DNA of 41,780 nucleotides from an uncultured Candidatus Marinamargulisbacteria bacterium. Its GTDB lineage: Bacteria; Margulisbacteria; Riflemargulisbacteria; GWF2-35-9. The stretch lies in NCBI GenBank assembly GCA_903902445.1, contig CAIUUT010000133.1, forward strand, positions 1 through 41,780, written 5' to 3'. Each line of letters begins with the position of its first letter. Position 1 is the stretch's first letter. The translations under genes and the position numbers were made by a program. Shown here piece after piece: positions 3,395 to 34,300 of this stretch. The notes under the pieces are model-generated. The model did not search any database and was not told where the DNA came from. It saw nothing but the letters and a program-made list of their open reading frames with translations.

Positions 3395-4843
3395 TTAGAA
3401 ATCATCAAAGTTTAGATTATCAAAATCCACTTCTTCGCTTTCCAAATTTTGTGTACTTTTTTCCAGCTGTTTAATGGGTGGCGCGTACTCACTCGTCCCG
3501 CTAGAACCGAACATATCCTTTAACTGCCTAACCGTTTCCGCAAAAGGAGTAAACTCATGGGTACCCTGTTTAAGAAAATTATTTACTTTATCTATTTTAT
3601 CAATGGCCCAGTCTATCTTGGGATTACTACCATTTACATACGCACCGATGTTTATTAAGTCCTCGGCTTCACTATATCGAGCCAGAACCTCACGCAGTTG
3701 GCCCGCTGCTCTTTTATGTTCCTCGTTATTAATAATAGAAAATAAGCGACTCACACTGTTACTTACATCAATGGAGGGAAAATGATTTCTAGCGGCTATA
3801 TCTCTAGAAAGGATAATGTGTCCATCCAGAATACTTCTGGCTGTATCGGCAACGGGCTCGTCCATGTCTCCGCCCTCAACTAATACGGTGTAAATAGCCG
3901 TAATAGAGCCAATAACGTTGGTCCCCGTGCGTTCCATTAAGCGTGGCATCAGCGCAAAAACTGAAGGAGGATACCCCTTCGTAGTAGGCGGTTCGCCTGT
4001 TGCCAGACCGACCTCACGCTGAGCCATGGCATACCGCGTGGTACTGTCCATCATAAATAAGACTTTTTTCCCTTGGTCCCGAAAATACTCCGCCACAGCC
4101 GTTCCCACTAAGGCTCCCTTTAATCTGATTAAAGGAGGCTTATCGGAGGTAGCCACAATAACTACCGAGCGTTTCATACCTTCTTCCCCCAAGGAATCTT
4201 CTATAAATTCCCTTACTTCGCGTCCTCTTTCACCAATCAGCGCTATTACGGAAACATCCGCCTTTGATTGTCTGGCAAGCTGCCCCATTAATGTAGATTT
4301 TCCGACCCCTGAGCCAGCAAAGATACCGATACGCTGACCTACGCCTAAAGTCAGACAACCGTCAATGACGCGCACCCCAACTTCCAACACTTCATCAATC
4401 TTTGGTCTTTTTACAGGATCTGGAGGATCGCTATCGAGTGGATAATATTCCTCACAAATAATGTCACCCTTGTCATCGATTGGGTCACCTAAACCATCGA
4501 TAACTCTGCCCAATAAGTTCATGCCGACCTTCACGCCCAAGGGCTTTCCTGTAGCATAAACCGGACTGCCTGGACAAATACCATCGATGGGGCCAAAGGG
4601 CATTAATAGTACTTTTTCCTTTCTAAAACCGACAACTTCAGATCTGACAATTCGCTTATCTGGCAGCTCAATTTGGCAAACCTCTCCTACAGATACATTT
4701 TGAATATGCGCCTCTATAATTAAACCCACAACTTCGGTAACCTTACCAGTATTCTTGGTTAAAGAGCCAATCGCCTTTACTTCTTTAATATAGTCATCAA
4801 ACTTTATATAGGGACTATTGTTCATCGAGTATATCTGGCTCAT
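3395..4843 (-). CDS. fliI: Flagellar/type III export ATPase FliI
   Basis: Walker A GIFAGSGVGKST, LIGERGREVREF, MDSTTRYAMAQRE, GEPPTTKGYPPS; directly downstream of fliH. Confidence 0.93.
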   Translation of the reverse strand: MSQIYSMNNSPYIKFDDYIKEVKAIGSLTKNTGKVTEVVGLIIEAHIQNVSVGEVCQIELPDKRIVRSEVVGFRKEKVLLMPFGPIDGICPGSPVYATGKPLGVKVGMNLLGRVIDGLGDPIDDKGDIICEEYYPLDSDPPDPVKRPKIDEVLEVGVRVIDGCLTLGVGQRIGIFAGSGVGKSTLMGQLARQSKADVSVIALIGERGREVREFIEDSLGEEGMKRSVVIVATSDKPPLIRLKGALVGTAVAEYFRDQGKKVLFMMDSTTRYAMAQREVGLATGEPPTTKGYPPSVFALMPRLMERTGTNVIGSITAIYTVLVEGGDMDEPVADTARSILDGHIILSRDIAARNHFPSIDVSNSVSRLFSIINNEEHKRAAGQLREVLARYSEAEDLINIGAYVNGSNPKIDWAIDKIDKVNNFLKQGTHEFTPFAETVRQLKDMFGSSGTSEYAPPIKQLEKSTQNLESEEVDFDNLNFDDF

Positions 4844-5882
4844 CTAACTCTAAGCTGGAAAGGTCTTGGTCATCGACGTCAAAGTTAATCTGCTCAAGCT
4901 CTAAATCCTCTTCCTCATCTTCGAAAAAGCTTAAATCATTTCCATCCAGCTCATCTTCACTTAGGGTTAAGAGTTCGTCACTTTGCTCAAAAATATCATC
5001 CTCATCTTGAGTCGCAGTTTTTTCTTGTACCAAAGTTCTTTCAATAAGTGCCGTATTTGCCAATTGCTTCGTTTCAAAAGTTTTGTTAATAACTTCCATA
5101 ATACCAATCATTTTTGTTTCGATAGTAGCATCAACCAGACCATATTCGGTTTCGATAATACACCCCCCAGGCTGTATCGTTTCTGACTTCAGAATGTCGA
5201 GACTTTGTACCGAACCAATCTGTGCAATCAGTCTTTGCTTATTCTCCGTAATAAAATCATAGTGTTGGGGATTGACCTTTATTCTTATCCTTTCCATTTC
5301 CCCCATTTTACGCAGGGCGTCACGAATAACGTCCATAATATGCGGTGGGTTGGCCACAAACTCATCTGCAATGACCTTCTTCAAAATACTGTCGACTAAT
5401 CCAATAAAATAGGGTTCTGTACTTTTAAAGATATCCTTTTTATATTCATTTAACTCATTGATTTTGTTAAATATTTCTTTAGTATTTTTTATATACTCCT
5501 CTTTGATTAAGTCAAACTCACTACTGCCCTTCTGATAGCCTTCAGCATAACCCTTTTTATTACCTTGCTCTAAACCTTCTTGATAACCCAGTTTGCTAGA
5601 CTCGTTTATAACCTTTTGTTTCTGAGTCGATAAATCTTGATTGGCAGCTATCTTTTCTGACTCATAAAGCTGCTTTTTCTGACTAAATTGGATTCTCTCT
5701 ATCTCTAGATTATTTTTTATTTCTTGCACTTCCTGCAGCATTTCTTGTTTTAAAATATTTAATTCATGTTGGATTTTTTCACGGGGAACTTTTAACTCGA
5801 TACAAAGCTTTTCGGGGGGAGGTTTGGGTATTTTTTCTTTTCTATCAAAGGCTATTTGCCCCTTGCTTATGAGACTAGACAT
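4815..5882 (-). CDS. fliH: FliH/SctL ATPase regulator with long acidic C-terminal tail
   Basis: GxxxG repeats (GYQEGLEQGNKKGYAEGYQKG), IRIKVNP, PGGCIIETEYGLVDAT; lies between fliG and fliI. Confidence 0.88.
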   Translation of the reverse strand: MSSLISKGQIAFDRKEKIPKPPPEKLCIELKVPREKIQHELNILKQEMLQEVQEIKNNLEIERIQFSQKKQLYESEKIAANQDLSTQKQKVINESSKLGYQEGLEQGNKKGYAEGYQKGSSEFDLIKEEYIKNTKEIFNKINELNEYKKDIFKSTEPYFIGLVDSILKKVIADEFVANPPHIMDVIRDALRKMGEMERIRIKVNPQHYDFITENKQRLIAQIGSVQSLDILKSETIQPGGCIIETEYGLVDATIETKMIGIMEVINKTFETKQLANTALIERTLVQEKTATQDEDDIFEQSDELLTLSEDELDGNDLSFFEDEEEDLELEQINFDVDDQDLSSLELDEPDILDEQ

Positions 5883-6471
5883 TTTCCATGGCCTGTTTAA
5901 GTGAGATTAGAAAGGCTTGCTTTACACTAACGGACATTTTAGCAATGATAGGAGATTTTTGCATTTGATTTTGGATCTTTATACCTCTAATGGATAAGAA
6001 GTCCGATATTTCCTTTTGTTTATTCAGCGGGAATAAATCTAGGATAATCCCATGGAATACCTTATTTTCAGCAAACATCAAATCCACCACAATTTCCTTG
6101 GCACACGCCTGCAAAAAGTCTTCCTCGGAGACTTCTTGGGGTTGGACTTCAAGATTTTCAAGTATTGGCGCAACTTTTTGTTCTGTTTGTTCGATGTCCG
6201 TTGTTTCGACATCTTTATGCGCTTGCGTTTCTGACACTTCCTCGAGGCTACTCATATTTTGCACATCAGGCACTTGTTCTTTAACTAATTCTTCAAAAAC
6301 AAAAGCATCAATATCCTCGGGTAGCGTTATTTCACCAATTAAGGCCAATACATTGTCTTGAATTTTTGCTACGGTCTCTGGCGACAACCCAGTCAATATC
6401 TCTTGCGAAAGCTCACTACCGAGCATGGAGAATATTATCGCTGTTTTTTCTATATTATTATATTCAGCCAC
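5875..6471 (-). CDS. fliG: Truncated FliG-like protein (N and M domains only)
   Basis: FliG-N signature EKTAIIFSMLG...EILTGLS; position between fliF and fliH; 198 aa; EHPQ appears degenerate (ENKV); no MFxF/C-terminal domain. Confidence 0.7.
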   Translation of the reverse strand: MAEYNNIEKTAIIFSMLGSELSQEILTGLSPETVAKIQDNVLALIGEITLPEDIDAFVFEELVKEQVPDVQNMSSLEEVSETQAHKDVETTDIEQTEQKVAPILENLEVQPQEVSEEDFLQACAKEIVVDLMFAENKVFHGIILDLFPLNKQKEISDFLSIRGIKIQNQMQKSPIIAKMSVSVKQAFLISLKQAMENV

Positions 6472-7980
6472 CTAGGACTCCATCCAACTGTTTATTTTAT
6501 TGATAATTTTTTCTTTATTATCGGTGGCAAAGCCTCTAAATTTCTCAATAGCTATTTCCTGCTCCCTTTGCGCTACCGTTTCTTCGTCAGCATCCTCAAG
6601 GGTTTCTTGTTCTTCGAAATCCTCTGTTTCTGCTGACTTTTGTTTATTTATGACCCGTAAAATAAGGATTACAAAAATAATACTAATAATAATAAAAGCA
6701 TAAATATATTTAAAAACAAGAGCGGTAGCTCCCTTGGGTGCATTAAATTTGCCAAATTGCTTGCTGGCGGGAGAAAAAATATTTTTCTTTACAGGTTTGG
6801 CAACTTGCTGATCCGAATCAATATTTACGAAAGGGCCTTTCTCAATAACTATTGAATCTCGGCTAGGCACATAGCCAATCGCTGAAGACACTAAGGTAAA
6901 AGTAGATTCCTTTAATTCGCTGGTGAGTTGGATATTTTGATTATTGGCATCTAAAAGAATGGCCACATCCACATTGGCCAAAACATAGGGCGAACTTTCC
7001 TCTGAAGATTCAGCCAACTTAACGTTGGTAAAAACCAGATAACTGCCCATGGGGTAAAGTGTCGCCAACACATTTTTCACTTTTTGATTATAATCATTTT
7101 CGTAATTTTTCTTTAACTGATCGCGAAACTTTATGAGCAATTCTAACGGTGATTTTGTTTCATCACCCTTAGAAGAAATAAGGTCAAAAAACATGGCTTG
7201 TCGCTTGTCTAATAGCGAAGCCTTCACTCTGTCGCTTAGGATATTTCCCGCATTGTCGATGACCGTAACATCTTCGGGCTTGATGTCTTCTACCGAGCTG
7301 GCCACTAGATGCATAATGCCCTTAATTTGCTTATCGGTAATGGAGTACTTTGGTTTTATATTTAATACAACCGAAGAACTGCCTGCAATCCTGTCAGCAA
7401 AAGGTTTCTGTTCTGGAATGACTATTTGCACTCGAGCCGTATTAATGCCTTTCATATGAGAAATAATTCTAGATAACTCTCCGCTTATAGCACGCACAAA
7501 CTGTATTCGCTTGTCATAATCTGTTGCACCTAGGCTTTGTGCCTTATCGAAAATTTCGAAACCGACAATTCCCCCCTCTGGCAAACCCAGTTGTGCCATT
7601 TTGAGTCGGGCTTCATCGGCAAACTTCTTCGGCACAGCAATGTTTACGATACGCCCCTCTTTTTTAGATTCAAAGGGTATGTTTTCAAAGCTCAGTGCTT
7701 GGCGAATTTGCGAAGCATCCATAGGTGTAAGCTGCTCAAAAACTGGCAGATACTTTTCATGTTTGTTGTATATTTTTTCTTTAGGAACATCGTCATCTAT
7801 GTTTTTTGGTTTCTGATTGGAGCCTCTAATCAGAAAACCCATGATGACTAAGACAATAATCAGCGCTACGGCAACGCCCGCTGCAATTTGATAAAGTCGA
7901 TTGGAAAGAAATGTAGTGACTATACTATTGGCTTGTGTGCTATTTTCTAGGTTTTCTCCCTCTTCTACCAATCCTCTCAC
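6472..7980 (-). CDS. fliF: MS-ring protein FliF (short RBM3)
   Basis: Two TM helices; GLPEGGIVGFEIFDK, RAISGELSRII, ARVQIVIPE, HLVASSV, VTVIDNAGNILS, SAIGYVPSRDSIVI motifs. Confidence 0.9.
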   Translation of the reverse strand: MRGLVEEGENLENSTQANSIVTTFLSNRLYQIAAGVAVALIIVLVIMGFLIRGSNQKPKNIDDDVPKEKIYNKHEKYLPVFEQLTPMDASQIRQALSFENIPFESKKEGRIVNIAVPKKFADEARLKMAQLGLPEGGIVGFEIFDKAQSLGATDYDKRIQFVRAISGELSRIISHMKGINTARVQIVIPEQKPFADRIAGSSSVVLNIKPKYSITDKQIKGIMHLVASSVEDIKPEDVTVIDNAGNILSDRVKASLLDKRQAMFFDLISSKGDETKSPLELLIKFRDQLKKNYENDYNQKVKNVLATLYPMGSYLVFTNVKLAESSEESSPYVLANVDVAILLDANNQNIQLTSELKESTFTLVSSAIGYVPSRDSIVIEKGPFVNIDSDQQVAKPVKKNIFSPASKQFGKFNAPKGATALVFKYIYAFIIISIIFVILILRVINKQKSAETEDFEEQETLEDADEETVAQREQEIAIEKFRGFATDNKEKIINKINSWMES

Positions 7981-8086: not shown

Positions 8087-8401
8087 CTAAACAGGCATTT
8101 GCATTATCTCTTTAATGGTCGTCACACTTGTATTAATAACCGTCATTGCCAAATTTACGGACAGATTGGCTTTTTCAACTTCTATCATTACATCCTCTAA
8201 ACTGGCCTTTCCCTGAATGTAGTCGTTAATCAACTTTTCCGAATTCATTTCTTGGGCACTGACCGCATTTAAACTATCCACAGCTTTATCTAATAACGAC
8301 TGGAAAGGATTCTTATCCAGTTTTAAGGAATTATCCACCACATTTGTTAATGGTGTGTTTTTTATTATATTACCTAAACCTGAAACCGGATTAATATCCA
8401 C
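8087..8401 (-). CDS. fliE: Hook-basal body protein FliE
   Basis: FQSLLDKAV...LEDVMIEVEKANLS...KEIMQMPV C-terminus; RBS GAGGAG before GTG; follows flgC. Confidence 0.88.
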   Translation of the reverse strand: MDINPVSGLGNIIKNTPLTNVVDNSLKLDKNPFQSLLDKAVDSLNAVSAQEMNSEKLINDYIQGKASLEDVMIEVEKANLSVNLAMTVINTSVTTIKEIMQMPV

Positions 8402-8415
8402 AGCCTACTCCTCTT

Positions 8416-8850
8416 CTATTTGCCTAAATTCATTATGGTTTGAGCCGCCTGCTTGGCAGAGTTAAACACGGCCGCATTGGCTTCATACAAACGGCGAGTT
8501 AGCGCCATATTCACCAACTCCGTAGACAACGAGTTGTCTACTACATAGACATATCCCTCGTCATCCGATTCAGGATTGGAGGGGTCATATAACTTTTGTA
8601 CCGTATCGGTTCGCTCTTCCACTCCAGACACGTAAGGGGTGTTATTTTCTTTATTGGTTTTCACTATCACTTGTTTCTGTTTGTATATCTGACCATCACT
8701 GGTCTTAGCGGTGCTGAGATTGGCTACATTTTCGGCAATAACCTCTAGCTTTTTTTGCTGGACAGACATCCCCGACCTAGCAATATTAATGACCTCAAAA
8801 ACATCCCCCCAACATAAGGCCGTAATTACTAGGAGGAGGAGGACTTTCAT
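8416..8850 (-). CDS. flgC: Proximal rod protein FlgC with N-terminal signal-peptide-like extension
   Basis: SGM...VIAENVAN, YDPSNPESDDEGYV, RLYEAN motifs. The start overlaps the flgB stop (TAATG). Confidence 0.88.
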   Translation of the reverse strand: MKVLLLLVITALCWGDVFEVINIARSGMSVQQKKLEVIAENVANLSTAKTSDGQIYKQKQVIVKTNKENNTPYVSGVEERTDTVQKLYDPSNPESDDEGYVYVVDNSLSTELVNMALTRRLYEANAAVFNSAKQAAQTIMNLGK

Positions 8851-9149
8851 TAACCTTTTCCCAAGGTTACAACTTTTCTTAAAATCTTCAATTTCGAGGA
8901 CATTAACTGGGCGTAGGATGTCATTTTTAGGTTATTTTCGGCCAACTTAGACAGCTCATTATCTAACAGCGCTTGCTTATCCGTTATTTTGGATTGAGCT
9001 TTATCTAGTTCGGTCTGAAAACTCTTGTAATTGTTGGACTCAATGTTGGCAATATTTTGAGCAATCGCCTTGTGACGGTTGGACGTTTCTTTGATGGCTT
9101 TTTCTAAACTATCAAAGGTCGAGCCATAAACGACATTATCTATTTCCAT
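8850..9149 (-). CDS. flgB: Short proximal rod protein FlgB (99 aa)
   Basis: RHKAIAQNIANIESNNYK and ELSKLAENNLK motifs. The ATG at 9149 overlaps the fliA stop (TAATG), preferred to the track start at 9161. Confidence 0.82.
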   Translation of the reverse strand: MEIDNVVYGSTFDSLEKAIKETSNRHKAIAQNIANIESNNYKSFQTELDKAQSKITDKQALLDNELSKLAENNLKMTSYAQLMSSKLKILRKVVTLGKG

Positions 9150-9919
9150 TAAACAGTCCAACTTTTCTTTAGTTTATTTGATAACTTGTTTTTTAGTTTT
9201 TCCAAGAGCTTCATGTGCAGTCTACTAATTTTACTTTTTGACATACTTAAAGCACTGGCTATTTCAATTTGGTTTTTATTTTCATAATAATACATTTTAA
9301 TTAACCTAAGTTCTTCAGGACTAAGTTCTTCTATACTTTCCTGCAAAAATATACGCTCATTGGTTCGTTCAATCCGATTTATGATTTCACTACTAATATC
9401 ATCTTTTCTTAAGCTATTTGGAACATTTTCGATATTATCCAAAGATAAAAGGTAGACAATGGCCGAATTGGAAATGGCCGACTGTAGAACAGTATCTTTT
9501 TCTTCTTCACTTTGCGGATTGGTTTCCTCATATAGGTTTTTAGCGATCTCATTCATCTTTTCCGTAACTTTGTCACGATCCACTTTTCGCGTATAGTTCG
9601 GATTGCGAATCTTCCATTCTTTACGGATGTAATCTAAGACTTCCCCTCGAATACGGTAGGAGGCGTAAGTTTTAAACAAAGTTCCTTTGTCGTTTTTATA
9701 GTTCTTCCAAGCTTTAACGAGGCCTTCGTATCCATAACCCATTAAATCGTCAAATTCTAGTCCTGGGGGCAAATTACTGGAACTAAAAATAGAGGCCACC
9801 ACCGTACGAACTAACTTTAAATACTCGTCCATTAACTCTGGAGGAATAGACTCTTGTTGTTTTTCTGTCTCCATCGCCCGTAATTGGGGATTAAATTCTT
9901 TGATTTGGATTTCTTCCAT
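9149..9919 (-). CDS. fliA: Sigma28/FliA-WhiG family sigma factor
   Basis: Region 2 DDLMGYGYEGLVKA...FKTYASYRIRGEVLDYIR; region 4 LIKMYYYE...EIASALSMSKSKISRLH. Confidence 0.85.
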   Translation of the reverse strand: MEEIQIKEFNPQLRAMETEKQQESIPPELMDEYLKLVRTVVASIFSSSNLPPGLEFDDLMGYGYEGLVKAWKNYKNDKGTLFKTYASYRIRGEVLDYIRKEWKIRNPNYTRKVDRDKVTEKMNEIAKNLYEETNPQSEEEKDTVLQSAISNSAIVYLLSLDNIENVPNSLRKDDISSEIINRIERTNERIFLQESIEELSPEELRLIKMYYYENKNQIEIASALSMSKSKISRLHMKLLEKLKNKLSNKLKKSWTV

Positions 9920-9921
9920 TT

Positions 9922-10245
9922 TTATTTAATTCCTTCGGTATTAAAATCTAATAAATTGCTATCGATCATTTGTTGCGCCAATTGCTTTTTGAAAATATCA
10001 TTTACAATCATGTCCCCAGTTTCATTACTAAAAATGTTGGACTCACGGTCTTGTCCATTTTCGTTTTGCTCTGGTTCTACGCTATAGGTCATCTTAAAAT
10101 CACGAAGATAAATTTTTTCAATGAGCATCGCTAAAAACTGATTTTTAGCATCCTGTTGTGTCGTATTTTTATCTTGGTTATTTACATTCCCATAATTAAT
10201 TATACTGGAAGAATCAAAAAAAGTTAAAGGGTTAATATAGGTCAT
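9922..10245 (-). CDS. FlgJ-like rod-binding protein (no muramidase domain)
   Basis: Directly after flgI (TAATG overlap). AKNQFLAMLIE and DIFKKQLAQQM resemble the FlgJ rod-binding domain. Confidence 0.55.
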   Translation of the reverse strand: MTYINPLTFFDSSSIINYGNVNNQDKNTTQQDAKNQFLAMLIEKIYLRDFKMTYSVEPEQNENGQDRESNIFSNETGDMIVNDIFKKQLAQQMIDSNLLDFNTEGIK

Positions 10246-11282
10246 TAAATTACCTCAATTTCAGCCGTTATAGCGCCAGCTGCCTTAATAGCCTGCAAAA
10301 TAGAAATAAGAGTGGAAGGCTTTGTACCCAGAGCGTTCAACGACTTCACCAAGTCTGCCAAAGTATTTCCACTGGATACAATTTTAAACTGAGAATTTTC
10401 TTCTGTCACGTCTATGTTAACTGCATCACCTGCATCTTTAAGAATTTTTATGCTCACATCCCCGTAGTTTATTGCCACAGGAGAAATTTTAACTTTTTCA
10501 CCGATAACAATAATGCCAGTTCGTTCACTAACGACTATCTTAGCCACCGTATCGGGGACCACCATAATGTCCATAAGCTTGGCGATAAAATCCACTATAT
10601 TGTTTTTGGCGGTTTCGGATACTCTAACTTTTAAGGTTGAGGCATCGTAACTATCACAAAATGCCAAACCAGACTTTTCGATGGCAAAAGCCATGCGAGC
10701 AGAGGTAATAAAATCTTGATTATTAAGAACCAAAGTTAAAATATTATCTTGGCTTAATTTTACGGGGATTTCTTTCTCAACGATTCCTCCATTCGGGATT
10801 ATGCCTCGGTTAGGCTCTATGCTTCTATATTTTGTTTCTCCAGACTCCGCGGAAATACCACCAATCGTTATATTTCCCTGAGCCGTAGCATAGGTTTTGC
10901 CATCAGGACCAAGAAGATTTGTTAACAGAAGCGTTCCACCTCTTAAAGAGTAGGCATCGCCCACCGAGGATACGTTAATATCAATTTTTTGACCTTGTTT
11001 ATTAAAGGGTGGCAATTCAGCCGTCACCATAACTGAGGCAATATTTCGACTTTTAATGTCTCCTGGATCGGGGGAAAGCCCCATTTTCTTCAATAAGTTT
11101 AACATCGATTTATAGGTTACAAGTACTTGCAAAGAATCTCCCGTATTAGTAAGGCCTACCACCAAACCATAGCCCATGATTCTGTTGGGTCGTGCATCTT
11201 CGATATAGGCCAGCTCTTTAATACGTGTTTCCAGAGGATAAGCCAAGCAACCAATAATAAAAAGTATTAATATTTTTTTCAT
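10245..11282 (-). CDS. flgI: Flagellar P-ring protein FlgI
   Basis: Signal peptide; RIKEL...NRIMGYGLVVGLTNTGD, VMVTAELPPF, SLRGGTLLLT, ILQAIKAAGAI. Confidence 0.95.
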   Translation of the reverse strand: MKKILILFIIGCLAYPLETRIKELAYIEDARPNRIMGYGLVVGLTNTGDSLQVLVTYKSMLNLLKKMGLSPDPGDIKSRNIASVMVTAELPPFNKQGQKIDINVSSVGDAYSLRGGTLLLTNLLGPDGKTYATAQGNITIGGISAESGETKYRSIEPNRGIIPNGGIVEKEIPVKLSQDNILTLVLNNQDFITSARMAFAIEKSGLAFCDSYDASTLKVRVSETAKNNIVDFIAKLMDIMVVPDTVAKIVVSERTGIIVIGEKVKISPVAINYGDVSIKILKDAGDAVNIDVTEENSQFKIVSSGNTLADLVKSLNALGTKPSTLISILQAIKAAGAITAEIEVI

Positions 11283-11367: not shown

Positions 11368-11973
11368 TTATAGCAACCAATCAAATATGCGCCCCAGAAA
11401 CCCTTTTTCCTGTCCGCTGGTTACATTTCCATAACCTTTAATTTTCAAAACAGCATCAGAAATTAGCGAAGAAGGAATGGTGTTGTCGGCTTGAATGTCG
11501 GCAGCTCGAATAACCCCTTCCATACTGATTTCTTCTTCTTCATTATTGATAATTATTTTTTTGCTGCCCCTAATGGAATATCGCCCCTCTTCAACTTTAT
11601 AGATAACCGCTGTTAACTGGGCTTGCAACTTGCTGCTTCTGCCGACAGTGCCACTACCCGTAAAGTTATTATTGGCATTGTAACCTGCTTTTCCCTGACT
11701 TTGAGCGGATTGATTGAGATTCATGTATTGAGCTACCTGAGACCAATTTAAGTTGGCATCTCCTGCTAACTGCGTGTTTTTCTTAAGGTCGGTTTGAGAT
11801 TTCTGTGTAGCGGTATTGCTCTCATCAATTTTAATAAGAACGATATCCCCTACATTTCTCGCCAAGGCTGGCCCATAGGGTGAAACATTATCTTCCGTCC
11901 ACAGTGACCCGCTAAATGCACAGGACCAAATAAAAGTAACCATAATAAATAGTGGAAAAACTTTATTCATCAT
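11368..11973 (-). CDS. flgH: Flagellar L-ring protein FlgH
   Basis: Signal peptide then GSLW; ARNVGDIVLIKIDE, IRGSKKIIINNE, GVIRAADI..DNTIPS; C-terminal GFLGRIFDWLL. Start uncertain (11970/11973/11979). Confidence 0.92.
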   Translation of the reverse strand: MMNKVFPLFIMVTFIWSCAFSGSLWTEDNVSPYGPALARNVGDIVLIKIDESNTATQKSQTDLKKNTQLAGDANLNWSQVAQYMNLNQSAQSQGKAGYNANNNFTGSGTVGRSSKLQAQLTAVIYKVEEGRYSIRGSKKIIINNEEEEISMEGVIRAADIQADNTIPSSLISDAVLKIKGYGNVTSGQEKGFLGRIFDWLL

Positions 11974-11989
11974 TTTCAAAACCCCAATT

Positions 11990-12141: not shown

Positions 12142-12501
12142 CTAGCTACTGGCTTTCTGTACTATGTTTTTTTCGTCTACTAAAACCACTTTCGGCTTAA
12201 AAGTTCGCGCCTTTTTCGCTTTAATGATGCCATAAGCAATAATAATTACCTTATCTCCTGGCACTGCAAGCCGTGCTGCGGCGCCATTCAATACTATTTC
12301 ACTATCCTTCTTACCACGAATAACATAAGTTACAAAACGTTCAGCGTTATTTACATTTACTACATGTACCTGCTCAAATTCATTTATTCCCGCTAAATCC
12401 ATGAGTTTGGAATCTATGGTAATACTACCTTCATAATCTATGTTCGTATCCGTGACCGTAGCACGGTGTATTTTTGACTTACAGACCGTTATTTCCACCA
12501 A
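12142..12501 (-). CDS. panD: Aspartate 1-decarboxylase
   Basis: [10 protein letters not shown], self-cleavage site YEG|[20 protein letters not shown]. Confidence 0.96.
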
Positions 12502-12614: not shown

Positions 12615-13268
12615 CTAGATTTCAAGCCTCACTTCTACATTGTGACTATCAATAACTATAGCATCTAAGATTTTCTTAGTCTTCTCGTTTAACACTTTAA
12701 TTCTACTACCAATAGTCCCATTTTTCAATGCAGTCCCTGGAACGGTAATAGCGATTAACTTGTAACGTAAATTTATAAAACAAGGCTGCTGATTGAAGAT
12801 AACCGGCTCTTCTTTTAAGTCGGTGTCCTGAAAAAAGTCATCCCGTTTTTTATTAAAACGACTTATGCTGTTGATAATTTTGGAACTGTCGGTTATGACA
12901 AAGGTGGAGACCTTATCGAGTCTTACCCAGTCTAAGCGGAGATTTTGAGAAACTATTTTATCTCCAGGCTTAAGTGCGCCAACACAAACCGGCACTTGTT
13001 GTTGCGCCTCCAAAACATAGTCTAAATTGCCAATAAAGCGCTCTTGCCTCAAGAGCTTCAAACTATTGAAACCATAGGCATAGCTATCAGGGTAAGTGAC
13101 AGTATCCGCTGATGATATTTGCAATTTGTTCAAATTTTGATATTGAATTGAATAGGTTACCACTTTACCCTGTGCTGAAAAATACTCCGTAATCTTTTGA
13201 GGTAAATCAACTTTAAACGCCGAAAAAGATAAACAGGTTACAGCAAGGAACGCAACAAAGCTACGCAC
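12615..13268 (-). CDS. flgA: P-ring chaperone FlgA (SAF domain)
   Basis: Signal peptide; C-terminal ITVPGTALKNGTIGSRIKVLNEKTKKILDAIV; start overlaps the end of flgG. Confidence 0.82.
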   Translation of the reverse strand: MRSFVAFLAVTCLSFSAFKVDLPQKITEYFSAQGKVVTYSIQYQNLNKLQISSADTVTYPDSYAYGFNSLKLLRQERFIGNLDYVLEAQQQVPVCVGALKPGDKIVSQNLRLDWVRLDKVSTFVITDSSKIINSISRFNKKRDDFFQDTDLKEEPVIFNQQPCFINLRYKLIAITVPGTALKNGTIGSRIKVLNEKTKKILDAIVIDSHNVEVRLEI

Positions 13269-14055
13269 GCGCTATATCGCTGGCTGATTTAAGCATGTTT
13301 TCACCAGACTGAATGGCTTTCGTTATGATATCAAAAGCTCTTTGCGTAATAACCATCTCCATCATCTCTCCGATGATATCAACGTTACTCGATTCTAAGG
13401 AATATTGAGAGATGGTACCAAAATTTTCTTGTCCCGGAATACCCGTCACAGCCTCACCCGATGCTACGGTTTGTTTATATAAATTGCCACCAATGCTTTC
13501 TAACCCCGAGGGATTTACAAACTTGGCCAGCTGTATTTGCCCCACAAGTCTTTCTTGTGTTTCTTGGTTAAGGGTAACAAACAAATTGCCGTCCGAGGCA
13601 ATTCGCACAGTTTGAGTATTATTGGGTATGACAATTTGTGGTTGCAAAATATTACCATTAGCGTCTACCAAGTTTCCTTCACTGTCTCGACTTAGGTTAC
13701 CCGCTCTGCCGTAGGCGACGTCTCCGTTGGCCGTTTTATAAGACAGAAACCCTTCACCGTTAATGGCAATATCGAACTCATTATTGGTGACGGCAATGGT
13801 TCCTTGGCGAAAATCCTTAGGGGTGGACACGATGCGAACACCAGCTCCAAGTTCAATTCCTGCTGGCTTACCAGCAGCTTCTGATTCTTTCTTGGCAATG
13901 GCTTTTTCTAAGACTTGAGGAAAAATATTTTCCAATTCCGTGCGGGTCGATTTATAACCTACTGTTTTGGAGTTGGAGACATTATTGGTAATATTTACCA
14001 TTAGCTTCTCAAAGGTAGACATCCCAGAGGCGCCAACATAAAATTCTCTTAACAT
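13261..14055 (-). CDS. flgG: Distal rod protein FlgG
   Basis: GASGM..NNVSNSKTVGYK, DIAINGEGF, FVNPSGLESIGGNLY, LESSNVDIIGEMMEMVITQRAF. Confidence 0.92.
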   Translation of the reverse strand: MLREFYVGASGMSTFEKLMVNITNNVSNSKTVGYKSTRTELENIFPQVLEKAIAKKESEAAGKPAGIELGAGVRIVSTPKDFRQGTIAVTNNEFDIAINGEGFLSYKTANGDVAYGRAGNLSRDSEGNLVDANGNILQPQIVIPNNTQTVRIASDGNLFVTLNQETQERLVGQIQLAKFVNPSGLESIGGNLYKQTVASGEAVTGIPGQENFGTISQYSLESSNVDIIGEMMEMVITQRAFDIITKAIQSGENMLKSASDIARA

Positions 14056-14342: not shown

Positions 14343-14873
14343 TTAAAATAAGCTTATTTTTCCTTTGAAATACTCGATTTCTTTTATATCTACCCAACCA
14401 TCTGAATTTCTGTCTAGAAGTGCGTCTTTCTTTGTCTTTACAGCAAAACCTCGCCGACGAATTTTCATGTTTGGAGAAGTTACGTTTCCATCTACACCCA
14501 GAGACTCAACCTGCACATCAACGCTAGCTATTTCATTTTCTAAGGCACCTGCAAAAAGTAGTCTTAAATTTTCTGTTTTAAGTGTATCTTTTTCTTCTAG
14601 AACAACTGTTAATTCGGTATCAGCATGATTTATATTAAAGTGCATTTCGATATATCCAGGGAAATTTTTGTTTTTCCTATCTTCCACAATCAGCGTTCTA
14701 CTGGGGTCATCTGTGCGGATATCGGCTTTTGGCATTTCCTTTTTGAATAAAATTAGCGCTTTGTTATAAAGTGTATTGGCATCCATATCTTTAATAATTA
14801 TGAGTTTATCTTCACCACAACCCACAAGGAAAGAAGCAAGCACTAATAACATTGAAAACAGGAAATATCTCAT
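14343..14873 (-). CDS. Lipoprotein with C-terminal EF-hand-like loop
   Basis: Lipobox LVGC; DRNSDGWVDIKE matches DxNxDGxxDxxE. Confidence 0.75.
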   Translation of the reverse strand: MRYFLFSMLLVLASFLVGCGEDKLIIIKDMDANTLYNKALILFKKEMPKADIRTDDPSRTLIVEDRKNKNFPGYIEMHFNINHADTELTVVLEEKDTLKTENLRLLFAGALENEIASVDVQVESLGVDGNVTSPNMKIRRRGFAVKTKKDALLDRNSDGWVDIKEIEYFKGKISLF

Positions 14874-14977
14874 AGTTAAAAGTATACAAACTTTATGCTT
14901 AAAGCGCTAGATGAGTGAATGAGCTGTTTGAGTTATTCATCATACTAGGGATTATCCACTATTTCAGGATATTAGAA

Positions 14978-17539
14978 CTAGAAACCATTCAATTTTAAGC
15001 TAAAATATAGAAAACTCAGGCTACCCTCACTAGTAGCTATCCCGAATACTGGAACTATAGAAAAGAAATACCCGCTACTGCATTCCGTCTGTAGTTCAGC
15101 TCCATAAGAAGTTCTTCCTCCATTTATCGTCGAATAATCTGCGAATAAAACCCCATATACATCTCCAATAAAAATATTTGGATTCCAAAAACCATCTCTA
15201 ACTTGCAGAAACTGTCTGGTAAGTTCTAGAGTGACATGTGACCCACCTGCTGATGATGAATAATCCGAAAAACCACGAACATTCTCTGAGACAGGATAAT
15301 CTTTATATACGCTGCCTTTTAATGAAACTTTTCCGAAGGTTGAATAAAGCGTATTTACAACAGACAAATACGCACTCGTATCTAATCTTGCAGGCTTATT
15401 TAGGGAGGCAGAAAGTGTATAGGCATTTTCCGGGAAAGAATAGTTCACAAAACCAGTTAAATCCATGGTTTTATTTGAAGGAATAGATAATCCTACAAAT
15501 ATATTGGATATGCCATTAGATAGTCTTTGCAGAAGAGGATATGAGAAGTTTATGACCGTGTTGGGATTGTTGCTAAGTAGATTCGTTGCCACACTGCCTC
15601 TGAGCGGTATAAAAAGTTTTGTATTCAGAAAAGCACTAATCCCTTGCCCTGAGGACGAAAAAGAGAGCTGATAGTCAAAAAGACTTAAATGGTCTGACCC
15701 CGCGGCCAATTCGGGAAAAATACGATTATAAGGAAAACTTGACGCCCCCTCCGACAATAAAGTGTTAATTGTTGCTGCACTAAGATGCAAATCGATAGAT
15801 TCTGTAATTTCTTCTTGTGGTGGTAATATATATGGTTGTGCAGAAATACTATTTTGATACAGCCCTTCCCCATCAGCTTCTAACCCAACGAAAAACAGCT
15901 TATCCGAAACAATAACACCGTCTTTGGCGTAACTTCCAGTCGATATTCTAACAATACTTCCTGTCTTAAGACCATAAGCATAGGTCATTATTTTTTTATC
16001 ATAATTTGCTGTAAAAATTAGCGTATCACCTACTATTTTAATATTTGTCTCGTGCCAATAAGTGTTAATTATCGGCGTAATTTGTAGCGTCTTCATGTTT
16101 AAATAACCAATATTCCAAGAACCAATAGACTTTTTATATACCACCAGAAGCTTGTCTTTATAGGACTTTATTTCACTAATTAGCTCTTCAGTCTCCCCCA
16201 CTTTATATTTCTTTCCTTGCTCATAAAACCATAGCTCGCTGCCAAAGTTAGTTTTCTTTCTTTTGGAGTAAAAGATAGTACCCGAAGCTAAAGGGACATA
16301 ATCATAAAATTCATCAAAAAAAACTTCCTCAGGTTTTGACAAATTATTCACATTAATCCGATATAAAACATTTTGCAAACCTATCCCATAATTGTCGATA
16401 TTTGCACTACAAGGTTCGAACTCTGTTCCCACAAAATATAAATTAGCTGTGTTTTGTGTATCGGCCTGAATGGAGCTGTAATCAGAAACATTTGTAAAGG
16501 TAAATAGTAGCCTTTCTTTACTGGTAATTGGATCATATTCGGCTAATTGACAATAACTTGTAAAAAAAGCAAATGGACCAGGTGTTATAAAGTTTTGTTT
16601 TTCGTAATATAGCTTATTATTGATGGCGGCTAATTTCTTAAAAACAGAAGACGTCTTAATAATTGAAATTCTATCTCCAACTATTTCCCAATCCGCAGCC
16701 TGTTTTTTCTCGGCTTCTTGCCAGTCAAGGAAGAGCTTATCAAAGCCTTTACCATATATCTCTGTAGCCACGCTATCGATACCAATACTAGGGAAAAAGA
16801 TTCCAATCTGTGGAGTAAGAAAGTGTGAAGAATAAGCATAAAAGAATTTTGCGAACTTATCTTCTCCATAGGTTGCAGATAAATAGCGAAAGAATGAACC
16901 ACCATAAAGATAATGCTGACCTAGGGGAAAAGTTGCGTACATGTAATTGGCTTGCAACGAATTAGGAAGTTTGTCTGCCTTGGCTTTGCTCTGTATAAGC
17001 GCATCATATTCTCCATAATTTAGGCGTCCTGAATATTTATTTAATTGAGATTCTGTATAGACCGTGATCCCTTCAAGCACCCACATTGGCACACAAATAT
17101 TGGGAGCATATAGATCACCTAGAAAAAAAGTTGCGATATTTGCTAACCCAGAAGTATTATGCAGTTGATTTATATGTGTATATTCATGTACATACAACCC
17201 TTTGGTATAATCTTGATCGTGTGCAAACGCATCGGAATTTGGATCACAGGTATAATCGACTATTTTTGTCCCATAAATTGAAGCGGAACCATTGACATAC
17301 ATCCCATAATCCTGAATGACAATTGCCGTCTTAAGACGATTTTCATTTCCTGTCATTTTCTTAACCATAGGCTCGTTTGTTGTTAAATAGTAGAGTGCTT
17401 GTTTTGCCCTAAAATCGTAACCTGCTGGATAATAAATTATAAAATTACCAGTTTCTATAGTTTGCCAGTCAGAGAAAGAAAAAGCATAAAGAGGTAGTGA
17501 GCCTAGAATCAACAATATTAATAGTATCGCTTTTTTCAT
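14978..17539 (-). CDS. Secreted/outer-membrane protein: gluzincin-like domain, TolB-like beta-propeller and beta-rich C-terminus
   Basis: Signal peptide MKKAILLIL..LYA (start 17539 preferred to 17578); HEYTH plus WVLEGITVYTES; propeller-like middle; amphipathic strands ending in Phe. Confidence 0.7.
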   Translation of the reverse strand: MKKAILLILLILGSLPLYAFSFSDWQTIETGNFIIYYPAGYDFRAKQALYYLTTNEPMVKKMTGNENRLKTAIVIQDYGMYVNGSASIYGTKIVDYTCDPNSDAFAHDQDYTKGLYVHEYTHINQLHNTSGLANIATFFLGDLYAPNICVPMWVLEGITVYTESQLNKYSGRLNYGEYDALIQSKAKADKLPNSLQANYMYATFPLGQHYLYGGSFFRYLSATYGEDKFAKFFYAYSSHFLTPQIGIFFPSIGIDSVATEIYGKGFDKLFLDWQEAEKKQAADWEIVGDRISIIKTSSVFKKLAAINNKLYYEKQNFITPGPFAFFTSYCQLAEYDPITSKERLLFTFTNVSDYSSIQADTQNTANLYFVGTEFEPCSANIDNYGIGLQNVLYRINVNNLSKPEEVFFDEFYDYVPLASGTIFYSKRKKTNFGSELWFYEQGKKYKVGETEELISEIKSYKDKLLVVYKKSIGSWNIGYLNMKTLQITPIINTYWHETNIKIVGDTLIFTANYDKKIMTYAYGLKTGSIVRISTGSYAKDGVIVSDKLFFVGLEADGEGLYQNSISAQPYILPPQEEITESIDLHLSAATINTLLSEGASSFPYNRIFPELAAGSDHLSLFDYQLSFSSSGQGISAFLNTKLFIPLRGSVATNLLSNNPNTVINFSYPLLQRLSNGISNIFVGLSIPSNKTMDLTGFVNYSFPENAYTLSASLNKPARLDTSAYLSVVNTLYSTFGKVSLKGSVYKDYPVSENVRGFSDYSSSAGGSHVTLELTRQFLQVRDGFWNPNIFIGDVYGVLFADYSTINGGRTSYGAELQTECSSGYFFSIVPVFGIATSEGSLSFLYFSLKLNGF

Positions 17540-17584
17540 TTTGCCCTTTTTTTTATAATTCCTGGACGAAAAGTACATTAAATC

Positions 17585-22405: not shown

Positions 22406-23923
22406 ATGAACAATTATGAAATTTTAAAAAACTATGACCTCTTTAATAATTTATCAATCGCTACCTTTACCATGGTTAATGAAAATCTACGCGAGGAGTC
22501 CTTTGTCAAAGGAACAACTATTTTTAATGAAGGAGAAATCGGTGATAAAATATTTTTCATTGTGCAAGGCAGTGTTTCGATATCTGTAGAAAATAAGCAA
22601 GGGCAAGATATAATCCTCTCTTCGCTTTGCGCAGGAGAGTTTTTCGGGGAAATGGCGATGCTTACACATTCCTCACGAACTGCTACCGCAATAGCTGCAA
22701 GTGACTGCGTGCTTTCCTATATGCAAAAACACGAGTTTGACCAACTACTTGAGAATCATCAGGTAATGGCGGTAGAGCTTAGCAGAGTTCTCAGCCAAAG
22801 ACTTATATCTACAAATCGAATTATTACCCATAAAGTAACCAATGAACTAATACTATTTATTGGTGCAGATGCAAATATTGATAAAACAAATATTTTTCTA
22901 GATTATTTCGAAAAAATCACTGCAAAAAAAATAATTATTTTGGACGAATCTATGGATATTGAGCAAGAACTTCAAAGAGTAAATAACTGTTTCCTAATAG
23001 TAAAGTGCAAGGTAATTACGCCACAAATTAGAGCTTTGGCTCAGCATATTATTAGTTTTCAAGATCTGCAAGAAACAGGAATATACTCCTTGAAAAGCTC
23101 CTGCATGCTGGTGGATTTGCAAAGGGTTGCCCGTTCTATCGCCAAAAAAACGATTGGCATTGCACTTAGTAGCGGAACTGCTCCTGGTCTAGCCCACGTT
23201 GGAGTAATGAAAGTTCTAACCGAAAATAATATTCCTTTAGATTTCATCGCTGGAACAAGCGGTGGTTCGTTATACGGGGCTCCGTTTGCCTTCAACCTAA
23301 ATTATGATGCGATCTATACTGCTTTTGAACAAGTCTACAAAAAGCCTCTGTATCAATTATGGGATCCATCCCTAAGTATTAGCGGAATCTTTAAGGGCAA
23401 TAAATTATTGCTCAAAACCATTCATAAACTTCTTGGCAAAAAGAATATTGAAGAAACCTATATTCCTTTTGCTGCTGTCTCCACTAATTTATATACGGGG
23501 AAAGAAGAGATAATTTCCACTGGCGACTTAATGAACGCCATTCGAGCCTCTTTGTCTATCCCTATTATGTTTACTCCTGTGCGACACAAAAATAAGTTAC
23601 TCGTAGATGGAGTAGTTACCACTCCCGTTCCCATTTCGGCCTTGGAAAAAAACAATATACATATAAAGATTGCGGTATATGTTTCCGAGCTAAATAAGTT
23701 TGAAAATAAACATCCCAATTTACTTAATGTTTTTCTTCGAGCTAGGAATATTTCTTCGGACTTTATTGCTGATGCAAGTGTGGAGCGAGCAGATGTAATT
23801 ATTAAGCCAAAAGTCCATCATTTAAAGCAATTTGAATATAACCGCATCGATGACATCATAAAAGCTGGCGAGGAGGCTGCACTACAGGCATTGCCCCGCA
23901 TAAAGAAATTATTACAAGCTTAG
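22406..23923 (+). CDS. cNMP-binding domain plus patatin-like phospholipase (NTE/RssA-like)
   Basis: GEFFGEMAML..RTAT; GLAHVGV, GTSGG nucleophile elbow, ASLSIP, LVDGVV. Confidence 0.88.
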   Translation: MNNYEILKNYDLFNNLSIATFTMVNENLREESFVKGTTIFNEGEIGDKIFFIVQGSVSISVENKQGQDIILSSLCAGEFFGEMAMLTHSSRTATAIAASDCVLSYMQKHEFDQLLENHQVMAVELSRVLSQRLISTNRIITHKVTNELILFIGADANIDKTNIFLDYFEKITAKKIIILDESMDIEQELQRVNNCFLIVKCKVITPQIRALAQHIISFQDLQETGIYSLKSSCMLVDLQRVARSIAKKTIGIALSSGTAPGLAHVGVMKVLTENNIPLDFIAGTSGGSLYGAPFAFNLNYDAIYTAFEQVYKKPLYQLWDPSLSISGIFKGNKLLLKTIHKLLGKKNIEETYIPFAAVSTNLYTGKEEIISTGDLMNAIRASLSIPIMFTPVRHKNKLLVDGVVTTPVPISALEKNNIHIKIAVYVSELNKFENKHPNLLNVFLRARNISSDFIADASVERADVIIKPKVHHLKQFEYNRIDDIIKAGEEAALQALPRIKKLLQA

Positions 23924-31375: not shown

Positions 31376-34300
31376 TTAATGATGTTTCTTCCCGTTAACT
31401 TCTACAAAATAATAAACCTTCTGTCCTGTCAAGAGCAAGTGAAGCTCTATTAGGTACGAACCATTTTGCAAAAAGGTATAATTAAAGTAATTTACTTTGT
31501 TTATTGGCTGGCTGGTCTGTTTAAGAAAGAGGATCTGTTCTTCTTGGGCACCAATTTTTTTGACGATTATCTCTAGGGGAACTAGATTCACCAACTCCTT
31601 GGTAGTAATCTTATAATTGAACGTTTGCTCTTCACTTAGGGCTACGATTTGGTTGACGCTATCTTGCAGAATCAAATTAAAGGAATTAGCCGGCTTGGTT
31701 TGCAAAACAAACGTTTTAGATTTCTTTAGCCAAGGAATGTCCACTTTTTCTTTCTTATAGAGGGTTACTTGCTCTAAGGACTCTACATAAGAAGGCGAAA
31801 TAATTATCGGGGCCTTATCTCGCAAATTGACTACTGTACTGAAATTTCTCTTGCTTATTTGAATGCCAATATCGACTGGTTCCTTAGAGCTATTAACTAA
31901 CTCAACCTCATAGGGTTGCCCCTTGGTATAAAGTGTTACTTTTTGAGGAATCGAAGTAAATTCCTTGCCATTGAAAATAATTTTCTGCCGAACAACCTCT
32001 TGCTGAGATGAGCTTTCTATGAGGGGTTGAATCGTTACCGTGGGAGAAGTGATTGACGTTGTCTTCCCGACAGTAACAAAAAGTTGGAACCTTACAATAC
32101 TATCCTTATGGGCTTTTGCATATGCTTGCACTTCGTACTCTCCTGGCTGTGTAGGGGCTAACAGCTTTGCAACAGCCACACCTTGTTCATTGGTGAAAAC
32201 CTCCTGAGGCAAATGAGTCATTTCCTTTTTCTGGTTCACGGAATATATTTGAAAAACCACCGGCAGATTGGCAATGGGTTGAGACTGCGTATCTAAAACC
32301 TTAACGGCTAAATTTTCAGCGAGCTCTTCACCAGAGCCCACCGATTGGCCATCTCCTCCAAATAGCTCAACTTTACTGACTTTAGTGGATATGGATTTAA
32401 CAAAAAAGGATTGATATTCCCATTTATTATTACTCCTATAATACGCCCTAATCTCTCTTATTCCTGGCTCAGAGTCCAGCTCAAAATTGAAACGTGCTAC
32501 CCCCTCATGATTTGAGAGAGTGGGTTTCTCTATGCGTCGCTGTTCCCCTTTGAACCTAAGCGTATAGGACCACTTAACTTGTGCATTAGCAACGGGATTG
32601 TTGTAAGCATCTAATAACTGCACAGCAAAGTCCTTGGCCAGCTTAGAGTTGGCGTTGGCTAATTGATTATCACCGTCCATAATCTTGGCCTTACTGATGA
32701 ACTGAGGTTTGAGCTCAATATTCACGCTAAACTGCGTTTTTTGCGAATCTGAGGCATAGATTTTGGCTGTATAAAGCCCCGACTTTGAGGGAAAATCGAG
32801 ATGGAAGGAGCCCTCCCCACGTCCATTGGCTTGTGTGTCTACGCCAACTTCTGATTTATCGGAGTTGAGCGGATATAAATCTAGACTGACTTTAGCCTTA
32901 CTAATAGGATTACCAAACTTATCTGTAGCTCGGAACGTAAAAACATCTTTGACTCTTTCATCTACCATAAAAACTAACCGTTCCTTCTCGATATCTTTAA
33001 GCGCAATCTTTGCGATTTGTGCGCCTCTCGCTCTTATTGGTAAGAAGCCAAACTTAGTGAATCGGTTATCGGCTACATAAAACCAATATTTCCCCTCCCG
33101 CGCAGGCATTTCTAATTTAGCGTATGCAAAACCATCTTCCTGAATTGTGGCTTGATTAAATCTATTTTTTGATGCTTTCTTTTGAGCATTAATGCCATAA
33201 TAAAAAACACCATATCTTAGTCTATTTTTATACTTGTCGTAGGCGGAAAACTGTAGGTTCTCTACCGTTGCACCAACTGGATAAAGGGCATTGGGCTTAT
33301 TGGCAATTACGATTTCCTCTGGATCCAAAGCCAAAGCATTTATTGTAATATTTTTATTGAGATTATTCCCCAACCTTACATTGTAAATATATGTACCCGC
33401 TGTCTTGCCTAAGACTGGTGAAAAATAGGCATGCCCCTGCTTATTGGTTCTCACGCGCAGAGCCGTAAAATTATTTAGCTGCTGATTGGGGACTCGGATA
33501 CAGTTAATATCGAGGTTTATACTGCCTACTGGCTTACCATTATTATCCGCGACCATAACCTCAATGGGAGGCATAAGCTTACTTTCTACTTTTCCTTGGC
33601 GGGGATAGGAATTGATGTTAAGGGCGGAAATATCTTCAGGAATGACATCGATTTTCACCCAAGTAATAATTGGGGTTTTACCATCTGCGTATTTACCTTT
33701 AAAGTTGATTTCATCTCCTTGGTCACTTACGATAAAGTTATAAGACACCAACCCCTGCTTGTTGGTATTTACCGCAATATTTTGCTGGTAACTTACACCT
33801 TTTCTTATTACCAAGTACTCAAACTCTACCTTGTGGTTACGCAGAACATGACCATACTGATCCTTTAAAACAAAGACTATATTTTCGGGCAAGGGTTGCG
33901 AGGGGAAAACCTTTATCACGGGCTTACTCATTAAATATAGTTGATATTTTTTAGGCTCGGCACAATAAACCTTAAACGCCACCTTAGAACCGGCAGCACT
34001 GGCCACTACATTTTCCAACTTTTTTGCGCTTGATTTTGGAAAAATACTGGCTCTTGCCAGACCGTCAGCATCGGTTTTATCATCTTTTTCATACCAATTT
34101 AGGTTTTCGCTCTTTTCCCAATGAATATCGGCATCTGAAATGGGGTTACCTAGGGAGTCTAAAACCTGAACTTGCAAAGGACTATTTGGTATTTTATTCC
34201 ATTCCACTACTTGGTTGTCTCCTGAAACAATTTGCACCTTAGCTGCTGAACCTGGTACTACCAGTAAGGAATAGCCCGCTTCCAGTTCAGAGAATTTTTC

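Follow-up and report, generated by a model that had tools for sequence, protein, structure and literature searches.

The rod, hook and filament of the bacterial flagellum are built from parts that all pass through the organelle's own type III channel and are added at its far end, and the rod proteins are early substrates of this route. Axial proteins are believed to fold only as they assemble, which speaks against their supply from the periplasm. Another group of basal-body proteins, FlgI, FlgH and FlgA, reaches the periplasm via Sec with signals that are cleaved. In the aphid symbiont Buchnera, basal-body and export genes are kept without flagellin; we know of no Sec signals on Buchnera rod proteins. 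For the proximal rod protein FlgC, a Salmonella study describes export by way of the flagellar type III gate with no signal to be cleaved, the importance of N-terminal residues 6-14 for this export, and F49 as a gate-recognition residue (PMC9307174). The literature we searched, with subscription journals outside its scope, yielded no published signal peptide on a rod protein and no account of the flagellar genes of Margulisbacteria.

The window analysed here is a stretch of 41,780 nucleotides from a member of this phylum. It carries a flagellar-type gene cluster, all on the minus strand, that has the flgB-flgC-fliE-fliF gene order of canonical FlgC loci. Around flgC, the cluster consists of the following features.

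4815-5882 and 3395-4843, minus strand: fliH and fliI, the export ATPase pair
5875..6471, minus strand: short FliG-like protein of 198 aa, with a weak FliG_N match, no FliG_C and no NCBIfam match
6472..7980, minus strand: fliF, the MS ring (Pfam YscJ_FliF, E 1.6e-50)
8087..8401, minus strand: fliE, no signal peptide (Pfam FliE, E 3e-15)
8850..9161, minus strand: flgB, no signal peptide (TIGR01396, 35.5 bits, below the cut-off)
9149..9919, minus strand: sigma-70 family factor with regions 2 and 4, found 5' of flgB in every sampled locus
9922..10245, minus strand: small open reading frame of 107 aa that separates flgI from the sigma gene; it matches no family and lacks a signal
10245-11282, minus strand: flgI, the P ring
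11368-11979, minus strand: flgH, the L ring
12142-12501, minus strand: panD, aspartate decarboxylase, lying within the flagellar cluster between flgH and flgA
12615-13268, minus strand: flgA, the P/L-ring chaperone
13261-14055, minus strand: flgG, the distal rod, no signal

The start of flgB is probably the ATG at 9149, which forms a TAATG with the stop of the sigma gene, and not the listed TTG at 9161. Elsewhere in the window, the region 5' of flgG (14343-17578, minus) holds two open reading frames with no family match, one of 176 aa with a lipoprotein-like start and one of 866 aa with a signal-like start. A reading frame of 1649 aa occupies 31376-36325 (minus), and a protein with cyclic-nucleotide-binding and patatin-like phospholipase domains is encoded at 22406-23923 (plus).

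The flgC gene itself can be divided as follows.

8416..8850, minus strand: flgC open reading frame, 144 aa (reading of the frame)
8806..8850, minus strand: flgC codons 1-15, encoding MKVLLLLVITALCWG, a predicted Sec-type signal peptide (from its sequence form)
8416..8805, minus strand: the predicted mature FlgC-like proximal rod protein, 129 aa plus stop (Pfam, TIGR01395, phmmer)
8851..8868, minus strand: the 18 bases 5' of the flgC ATG, aaccttgggaaaaggtta, purine-rich with a Shine-Dalgarno-like AAGG, within the 3' end of flgB

The original prediction, made from the letters of this stretch, held that a 15-residue extension precedes the point where canonical FlgC begins and that it has a basic n-region, a hydrophobic core and a C-x-G site. 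Both statements hold. In the FlgC reading frame DVFEVINIARSGM stands directly after MKVLLLLVITALCWG; the n-region is MK, the core VLLLLVITALCW has 12-13 hydrophobic residues, and the predicted cut falls before Asp16, after Cys-Trp-Gly, with Cys at -3 and Gly at -1. No FlgC profile and no solved FlgC chain reaches into residues 1-15. Pfam places Flg_bb_rod (PF00460) at residues 21-47 (30.5 bits, cut-off 20.7) and Flg_bbr_C (PF06429) at residues 108-142 (23.2 bits, cut-off 23), and the NCBIfam FlgC equivalog TIGR01395 aligns over profile positions 1-137 of 137 on residues 18-144. Among solved FlgC chains, phmmer returned 12du_W (E 6.1e-17), 7bin_V (E 1.9e-14) and 8z5s_g (E 1.6e-11); the alignments pair residue 17 of the window protein with residue 3 of 12du_W and, in Salmonella FlgC (7bin_V), residue 19 with residue 5. 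Because the solved-chain alignments and TIGR01395 begin at residues 17-19, the first 14 or 15 residues are extra. The TIGR01395 score of 97.3 bits is below the cut-off of 102.1 and is 97.9 bits when the signal is left out, a shortfall that leaves room for a changed role of this FlgC. By a hand count on the phmmer alignment, Salmonella F49 corresponds to Val63 in the window protein and to Ile in a second FlgC of the same genome, described below, which makes this position uninformative.

The assignment of the start codon was likewise borne out. The flgB TAA and the flgC ATG overlap by one base (TAATG), the flgB reading frame ending at 8850, and the window gene has no ATG, GTG or TTG within -3 to +5 codons of the canonical FlgC start. 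In frame, no further ATG occurs before codon 28, and a start there would delete the conserved N-terminal motif. Two homopolymers, a G6 run at 8810-8805 and a T5 run at 8801-8797, are present at the junction of signal and FlgC. The out-of-frame ATG near them consists of letters from the codons GAT-GTT (Asp16-Val17), residues found without change in 11 of 11 close FlgC orthologues. A Logan contig of the probable source sample, which is not an independent sample, is identical to the window over 8300-9300, with no indel.

We compared the gene across 146 genomes of the phylum Margulisbacteria, all of them metagenome bins; the close relatives are Candidatus Marinamargulisbacteria, Margulisbacteria, Riflemargulisbacteria and Termititenax. 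A first search found FlgC in 40 of 41 related genomes, and a match at E <= 1e-5 is present in 131 of the 146. Families f1-f4, which comprise 13 genomes including the window's own, give two FlgC matches per genome: one begins at query residue 2-6 (19 in G012) and has the extension, and the other begins at query residue 17-22 and does not. FlgC frames were classed, after refinement of their starts, by how far the invariant N-x-A-N motif lies from the start codon. This distance is exactly 26 residues in canonical genes; in the others it is 39-69 residues and is accompanied by a strongly hydrophobic stretch. Of 141 frames, 71 have a signal-like extension, 68 are canonical (counting L051, which the script scored canonical and which has a short hydrophobic start that makes its class uncertain) and 2 could not be anchored; chance does not account for so many extensions.

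The 71 extended genes come from 71 of the 131 FlgC-bearing genomes and from 33 families. By genome, 61 have the signal-bearing type only, 59 the canonical type only, and 9 both, a count made with the second copies of four further f1-f4 genomes left out of the fetched frames; one more genome has the signal-bearing type plus an unanchored frame, and one an unanchored frame. The signal-bearing gene is thus the sole FlgC found in 61 genomes. The trait is uniform inside families, with 33 families of the signal-bearing type and 12 canonical; 1 gene is unclear. In a FastTree phylogeny of 138 mature FlgC cores (140 columns, signal left out), the signal label requires 2 changes against a mean of 46 after shuffling. 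The window FlgC falls in a starred clade of 12 signal-bearing rows and the second copy of its genome in a clade of 9 canonical rows; the tree is unrooted with many unresolved forks, and we claim no direction of gain or loss from it.

Beyond the phylum set, a profile search of a library of 1.84 billion representative proteins returned 8874 FlgC-like proteins at E <= 0.001, and 21 of the best 150 of these have a signal-like start. Two library proteins, P0009 and P0013, are of the canonical second-copy type (…SSTGMSVQRKRMDIIAENLAN) yet have signal-like starts. Judging from the sequences of this pair, signal-bearing FlgC may occur in more than one FlgC lineage. A word-indexed protein search with FlgC returned 2 proteins only, and the matches in the ESM Atlas were FlgC clusters only.

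The extension has a consistent form. By simple rules of our own and by reading of N-termini, not by a trained predictor, all 71 signal-bearing FlgC proteins show a tripartite arrangement of a K/R n-region, an uncharged core and a small-residue -3/-1 site. The n-region is net positive in 66 of 71; the core spans 8-22 residues (median 15); and small residues stand at -3/-1 in every case, with A (33), S (20), G (14) or T (4) at -1 and with Q (25), D (12) and L (12) among the residues at +1. For 61 of the 71, a crude site picker places the predicted cut between -2 and +5 residues relative to the canonical Met, and mature FlgC would in this way keep its canonical N-terminus. A Shine-Dalgarno-like motif 4-18 nt 5' of the upstream start supports it in 51 of 71 orthologues (random positions: 214 of 1420), and in 39 of the 71 the canonical position has no start codon nearby. 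Taken with the frame, which is open in all 71 genes, and with a second assembly that agrees in its letters, these results answer the points on which the original prediction could have failed: orthologues across 33 families keep the extension, no indel need be invoked, and translation does not appear to begin downstream. A signal for Sec, as had been proposed, with cutting by signal peptidase I is the best reading of the sequence.

Two other classes of signal can be set aside. For a lipoprotein signal, the window has T-A-L-C with Leu at -1 in place of the lipobox L-[AS]-[GA]-C, and the Cys is absent in most orthologues (e.g. L003-L006). For a Tat signal, the n-region MK lacks RR, and orthologues mostly have a single K or R. 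The genome encodes signal peptidase I (lepB; TIGR02227, 135 bits). On C205 lepB adjoins a FlgE/F/G-like gene; it is grouped there with rplS, trmD and rimM, and we judge the adjacency incidental.

The feature appears to be wider than FlgC, with FlgB, the FlgF-like protein and the small open reading frame bearing apparent signals in other families. We surveyed 42 sampled genomes, one per family, of which 33 are of the signal-bearing type and 9 canonical by their FlgC. The automatic caller missed clear signals on FlgB and FlgF-like proteins, and the counts for these and for the small open reading frame come from reading the printed N-termini.

FlgC: signal in 33 of 33 signal-type representatives and 0 of 9 canonical
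FlgB: signal clear in 23 and probable in 2 of 33 signal-type representatives, and in 0 of 9 canonical
FlgF-like: signal in 24 of 24 signal-type representatives where the gene was found, one start being unsure, and in 0 of 9 canonical
Small open reading frame: signal in 18 of 26 signal-type representatives where found; gene not found in the canonical representatives
FliE: signal in 0 of 42 sampled genomes
FlgG, the distal rod protein: signal in 0 of 37 sampled genomes

Both FlgG-like genes of each canonical representative lack a signal. FlgB is without one in the signal-type representatives of f1, f2, f3, f4, f15, f18, f24 and f39; in G016 and G023 FlgB, the FlgF-like protein and the small open reading frame all have signal-like starts. 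Signals among rod parts thus seem, from their N-termini, to be confined to the proximal ones (FlgC, FlgB and FlgF-like) and to be absent from FliE and FlgG. The window's own genome bears the signal on FlgC but not on FlgB, FliE, FlgG or the small open reading frame. Since FlgB lies below FlgC in the rod, its lack of a signal here means that rod subunits would arrive by two routes in alternation, a point against assembly of FlgC from the periplasm.

The window's genome holds two flagellar-type gene sets, which we sorted by neighbourhood. The second FlgC, without a signal, is encoded at G000 C176:2243-2668 (141 aa, start MSFFNSS) and adjoins FlgB, FliF, a full FliG, FliH, FliI and FliJ. To this canonical set belong flagellin, FlgK, FlgL, FlgM, FliW, CsrA, FlhF, FliA, FliL and MotB (C176, C74, C192, C63, C141). 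The window's set comprises genes for FliF, a short FliG, FliH, FliI, FliE, FlgB, FlgC, FlgG, FlgA, FlgH, FlgI, FlhA, FlhB and FliPQR; outside the window its FlhA lies on C198, and FlhB, FliR, FliQ, FliP, FliN-like, FliM-like and FlgE/F/G-like genes lie on C110. There are two copies each of FlhA and FliP in the genome. The window FlgC is a member of the window's flagellar-type set and not of the filament-bearing flagellum.

The window-type set recurs through the phylum. FlhA (PF00771) is present in 135 of 146 genomes, mostly once outside f1-f4 (a few genomes have 2-3 hits, several of which are fragments of one gene); f1-f4 genomes have two, or three in two of them. Flagellin (PF00669) was detected in 15 of 146 genomes, made up of all 13 of f1-f4 plus two more. 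A check of 5 good genomes for FlgD turned up none. The 42 sampled genomes keep one order: FlgF-like, FlgG, FlgA, FlgH, FlgI, the small open reading frame, the sigma factor, FlgB, FlgC, FliE, FliF, short FliG, FliH and FliI. A basal-body gene set without flagellin, kept across a phylum, is thereby brought to light. It is probably not a swimming organelle; in the window's genome that role falls to the separate canonical flagellar set.

Several observations concern the switch and export components of these genomes. The FliG of window-type sets is short (159-240 aa) and consists of the N and M parts only. At G016 L160:4095-8206, separate proteins of ~490 aa with FliG_C adjoin MotA and MotB genes, and FliG_C matches in G000 lie on C132, C166, C85, C182, C128 and C55. 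A 130-aa reading frame at G023 L162:13010-13402, just 5' of the FlgF-like gene, comprises the FlhB C-terminal domain only.

Our data suggest a route to the rod that differs from the canonical one. The 15-residue signal would take pre-FlgC to SecYEG, and signal peptidase I would cut after Cys-Trp-Gly, giving a mature protein with Asp16 at its N-terminus, one or two residues at most from the canonical FlgC start. Mature FlgC would be free in the periplasm and would then be added onto the FliE/FlgB base within the periplasmic collar of the MS ring, bypassing the type III export channel. We consider Sec export and cleavage very probable, because of the extension's form and conservation and because the predicted cut would give back the canonical N-terminus. 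The whole chain, from Sec export through the signal peptidase I cut to assembly into the proximal rod from the periplasmic side, is one that we favour with some reserve; entry into the rod from that side is suggested because the FlgC sequence and the gene order are kept. More tentatively, and with slightly more doubt than conviction, we propose that the whole proximal rod above FliE (FlgB, FlgC and FlgF-like), together with the small open reading frame, switched from type III to Sec export in much of the phylum, while FliE and FlgG stay with type III.

A protein exported by Sec and cleaved need not be a rod subunit. FlgB, FlgC and the FlgF-like protein could make up a different periplasmic structure, or serve as regulators, within a remodelled machine with no part in swimming. 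The rarity of flagellin (15 of 146 genomes) beside the window-type set, the lack of FlgD in the five genomes tested, a FliG without its C-terminal domain and a FlgC score just under the curated cut-off are all consistent with such a change of role. We nevertheless consider it unlikely. The mature part aligns over its full length with FlgC profiles and with FlgC chains from solved rods, the flgB-flgC-fliE-fliF order is kept in 42 of 42 sampled loci, and the predicted cut restores the canonical N-terminus, which is part of the core in solved rods. Alternatively, the hydrophobic N-terminus could stay uncleaved and, as a signal anchor, keep FlgC attached to the inner membrane. In the window protein the core does abut the conserved domain, and CWG makes a short c-region. 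This reading seems quite improbable given that small -3/-1 residues occur in 71 of 71 genes, that no linker separates the core from the conserved N-terminal helix, and that cores of 11-15 residues in the window's family are short for a membrane span; a tethered N-terminus would also be hard to fit into a helical rod.

It is also conceivable that the extension is still a type III signal, or is inert, and that FlgC passes the flagellar export gate as usual. Hydrophobic N-termini are normally captured by the Sec/SRP route, and the extension resembles a Sec signal rather than the disordered, polar signal of type III substrates. Genes for the gate persist: 135 of 146 genomes have FlhA, and the window's genome encodes FlhB and FliPQR for the window set. 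Residues 6-14 of Salmonella FlgC do matter for type III export (PMC9307174). Against continued use of the gate, signals stand on proximal rod proteins and on neither FliE nor FlgG, a pattern that points to a deliberate split of routes, and we regard this explanation as very improbable. An artefact, whether a wrong start codon, a frameshift at the G6/T5 runs or a chimeric bin, is scarcely credible. Homopolymers do lie beside the junction and the genome was binned from a metagenome as 214 contigs, but 71 genes from 71 genomes retain frame and signal, a second assembly has the same letters, and the out-of-frame ATG is accounted for by the conserved Asp-Val codons. The presence of both FlgC types in all 13 f1-f4 genomes likewise shows that the two sets are not a binning error.

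We therefore return to Sec export followed by assembly from the periplasm as our preferred reading. With a conserved Sec signal, the proximal rod proteins of this natural system break the rule that all axial parts travel by type III. If the proposed mechanism is true, the product would be a filament-less, flagellum-derived, envelope-spanning machine with a shaft supplied through two export routes at the same time, and axial proteins would be able to assemble from the periplasmic side. Were export confirmed, rod subunits could be said to come from the periplasm, the share of type III export in early rod assembly would become testable, and the result would bear on models of flagellar origin that combine a secretion system with periplasmic parts.

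The system closest to this one is canonical FlgC, as in Salmonella (7BIN, 7CGO, 7E80). It has the same Flg_bb_rod and Flg_bbr_C domains as the window FlgC and the same flgB-flgC-fliE-fliF order, and the window protein aligns in full with TIGR01395 and the solved chains; the differences are the 15 N-terminal Sec-like residues and a score just below the TIGR01395 cut-off. The second FlgC of the genome (C176) is 39% identical to the window protein over residues 22-143. It has no signal, passes the TIGR01395 cut-off at 145.8 bits and sits in a canonical set with full-length FliG, FliJ, flagellin, FlgK, FlgL, FlgM, FliW and MotB (C176, C74, C192, C63). The window FlgC resembles FlgI, FlgH and FlgA at its start, since the window copies of these proteins begin with comparable signals; unlike FlgC, they are ring proteins and a chaperone, outside the axial family of rod, hook and filament. 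Buchnera resembles the window-type set in keeping basal-body and export genes without flagellin. The set described here differs from it in being phylum-wide and in existing, in one class, alongside a full flagellum.
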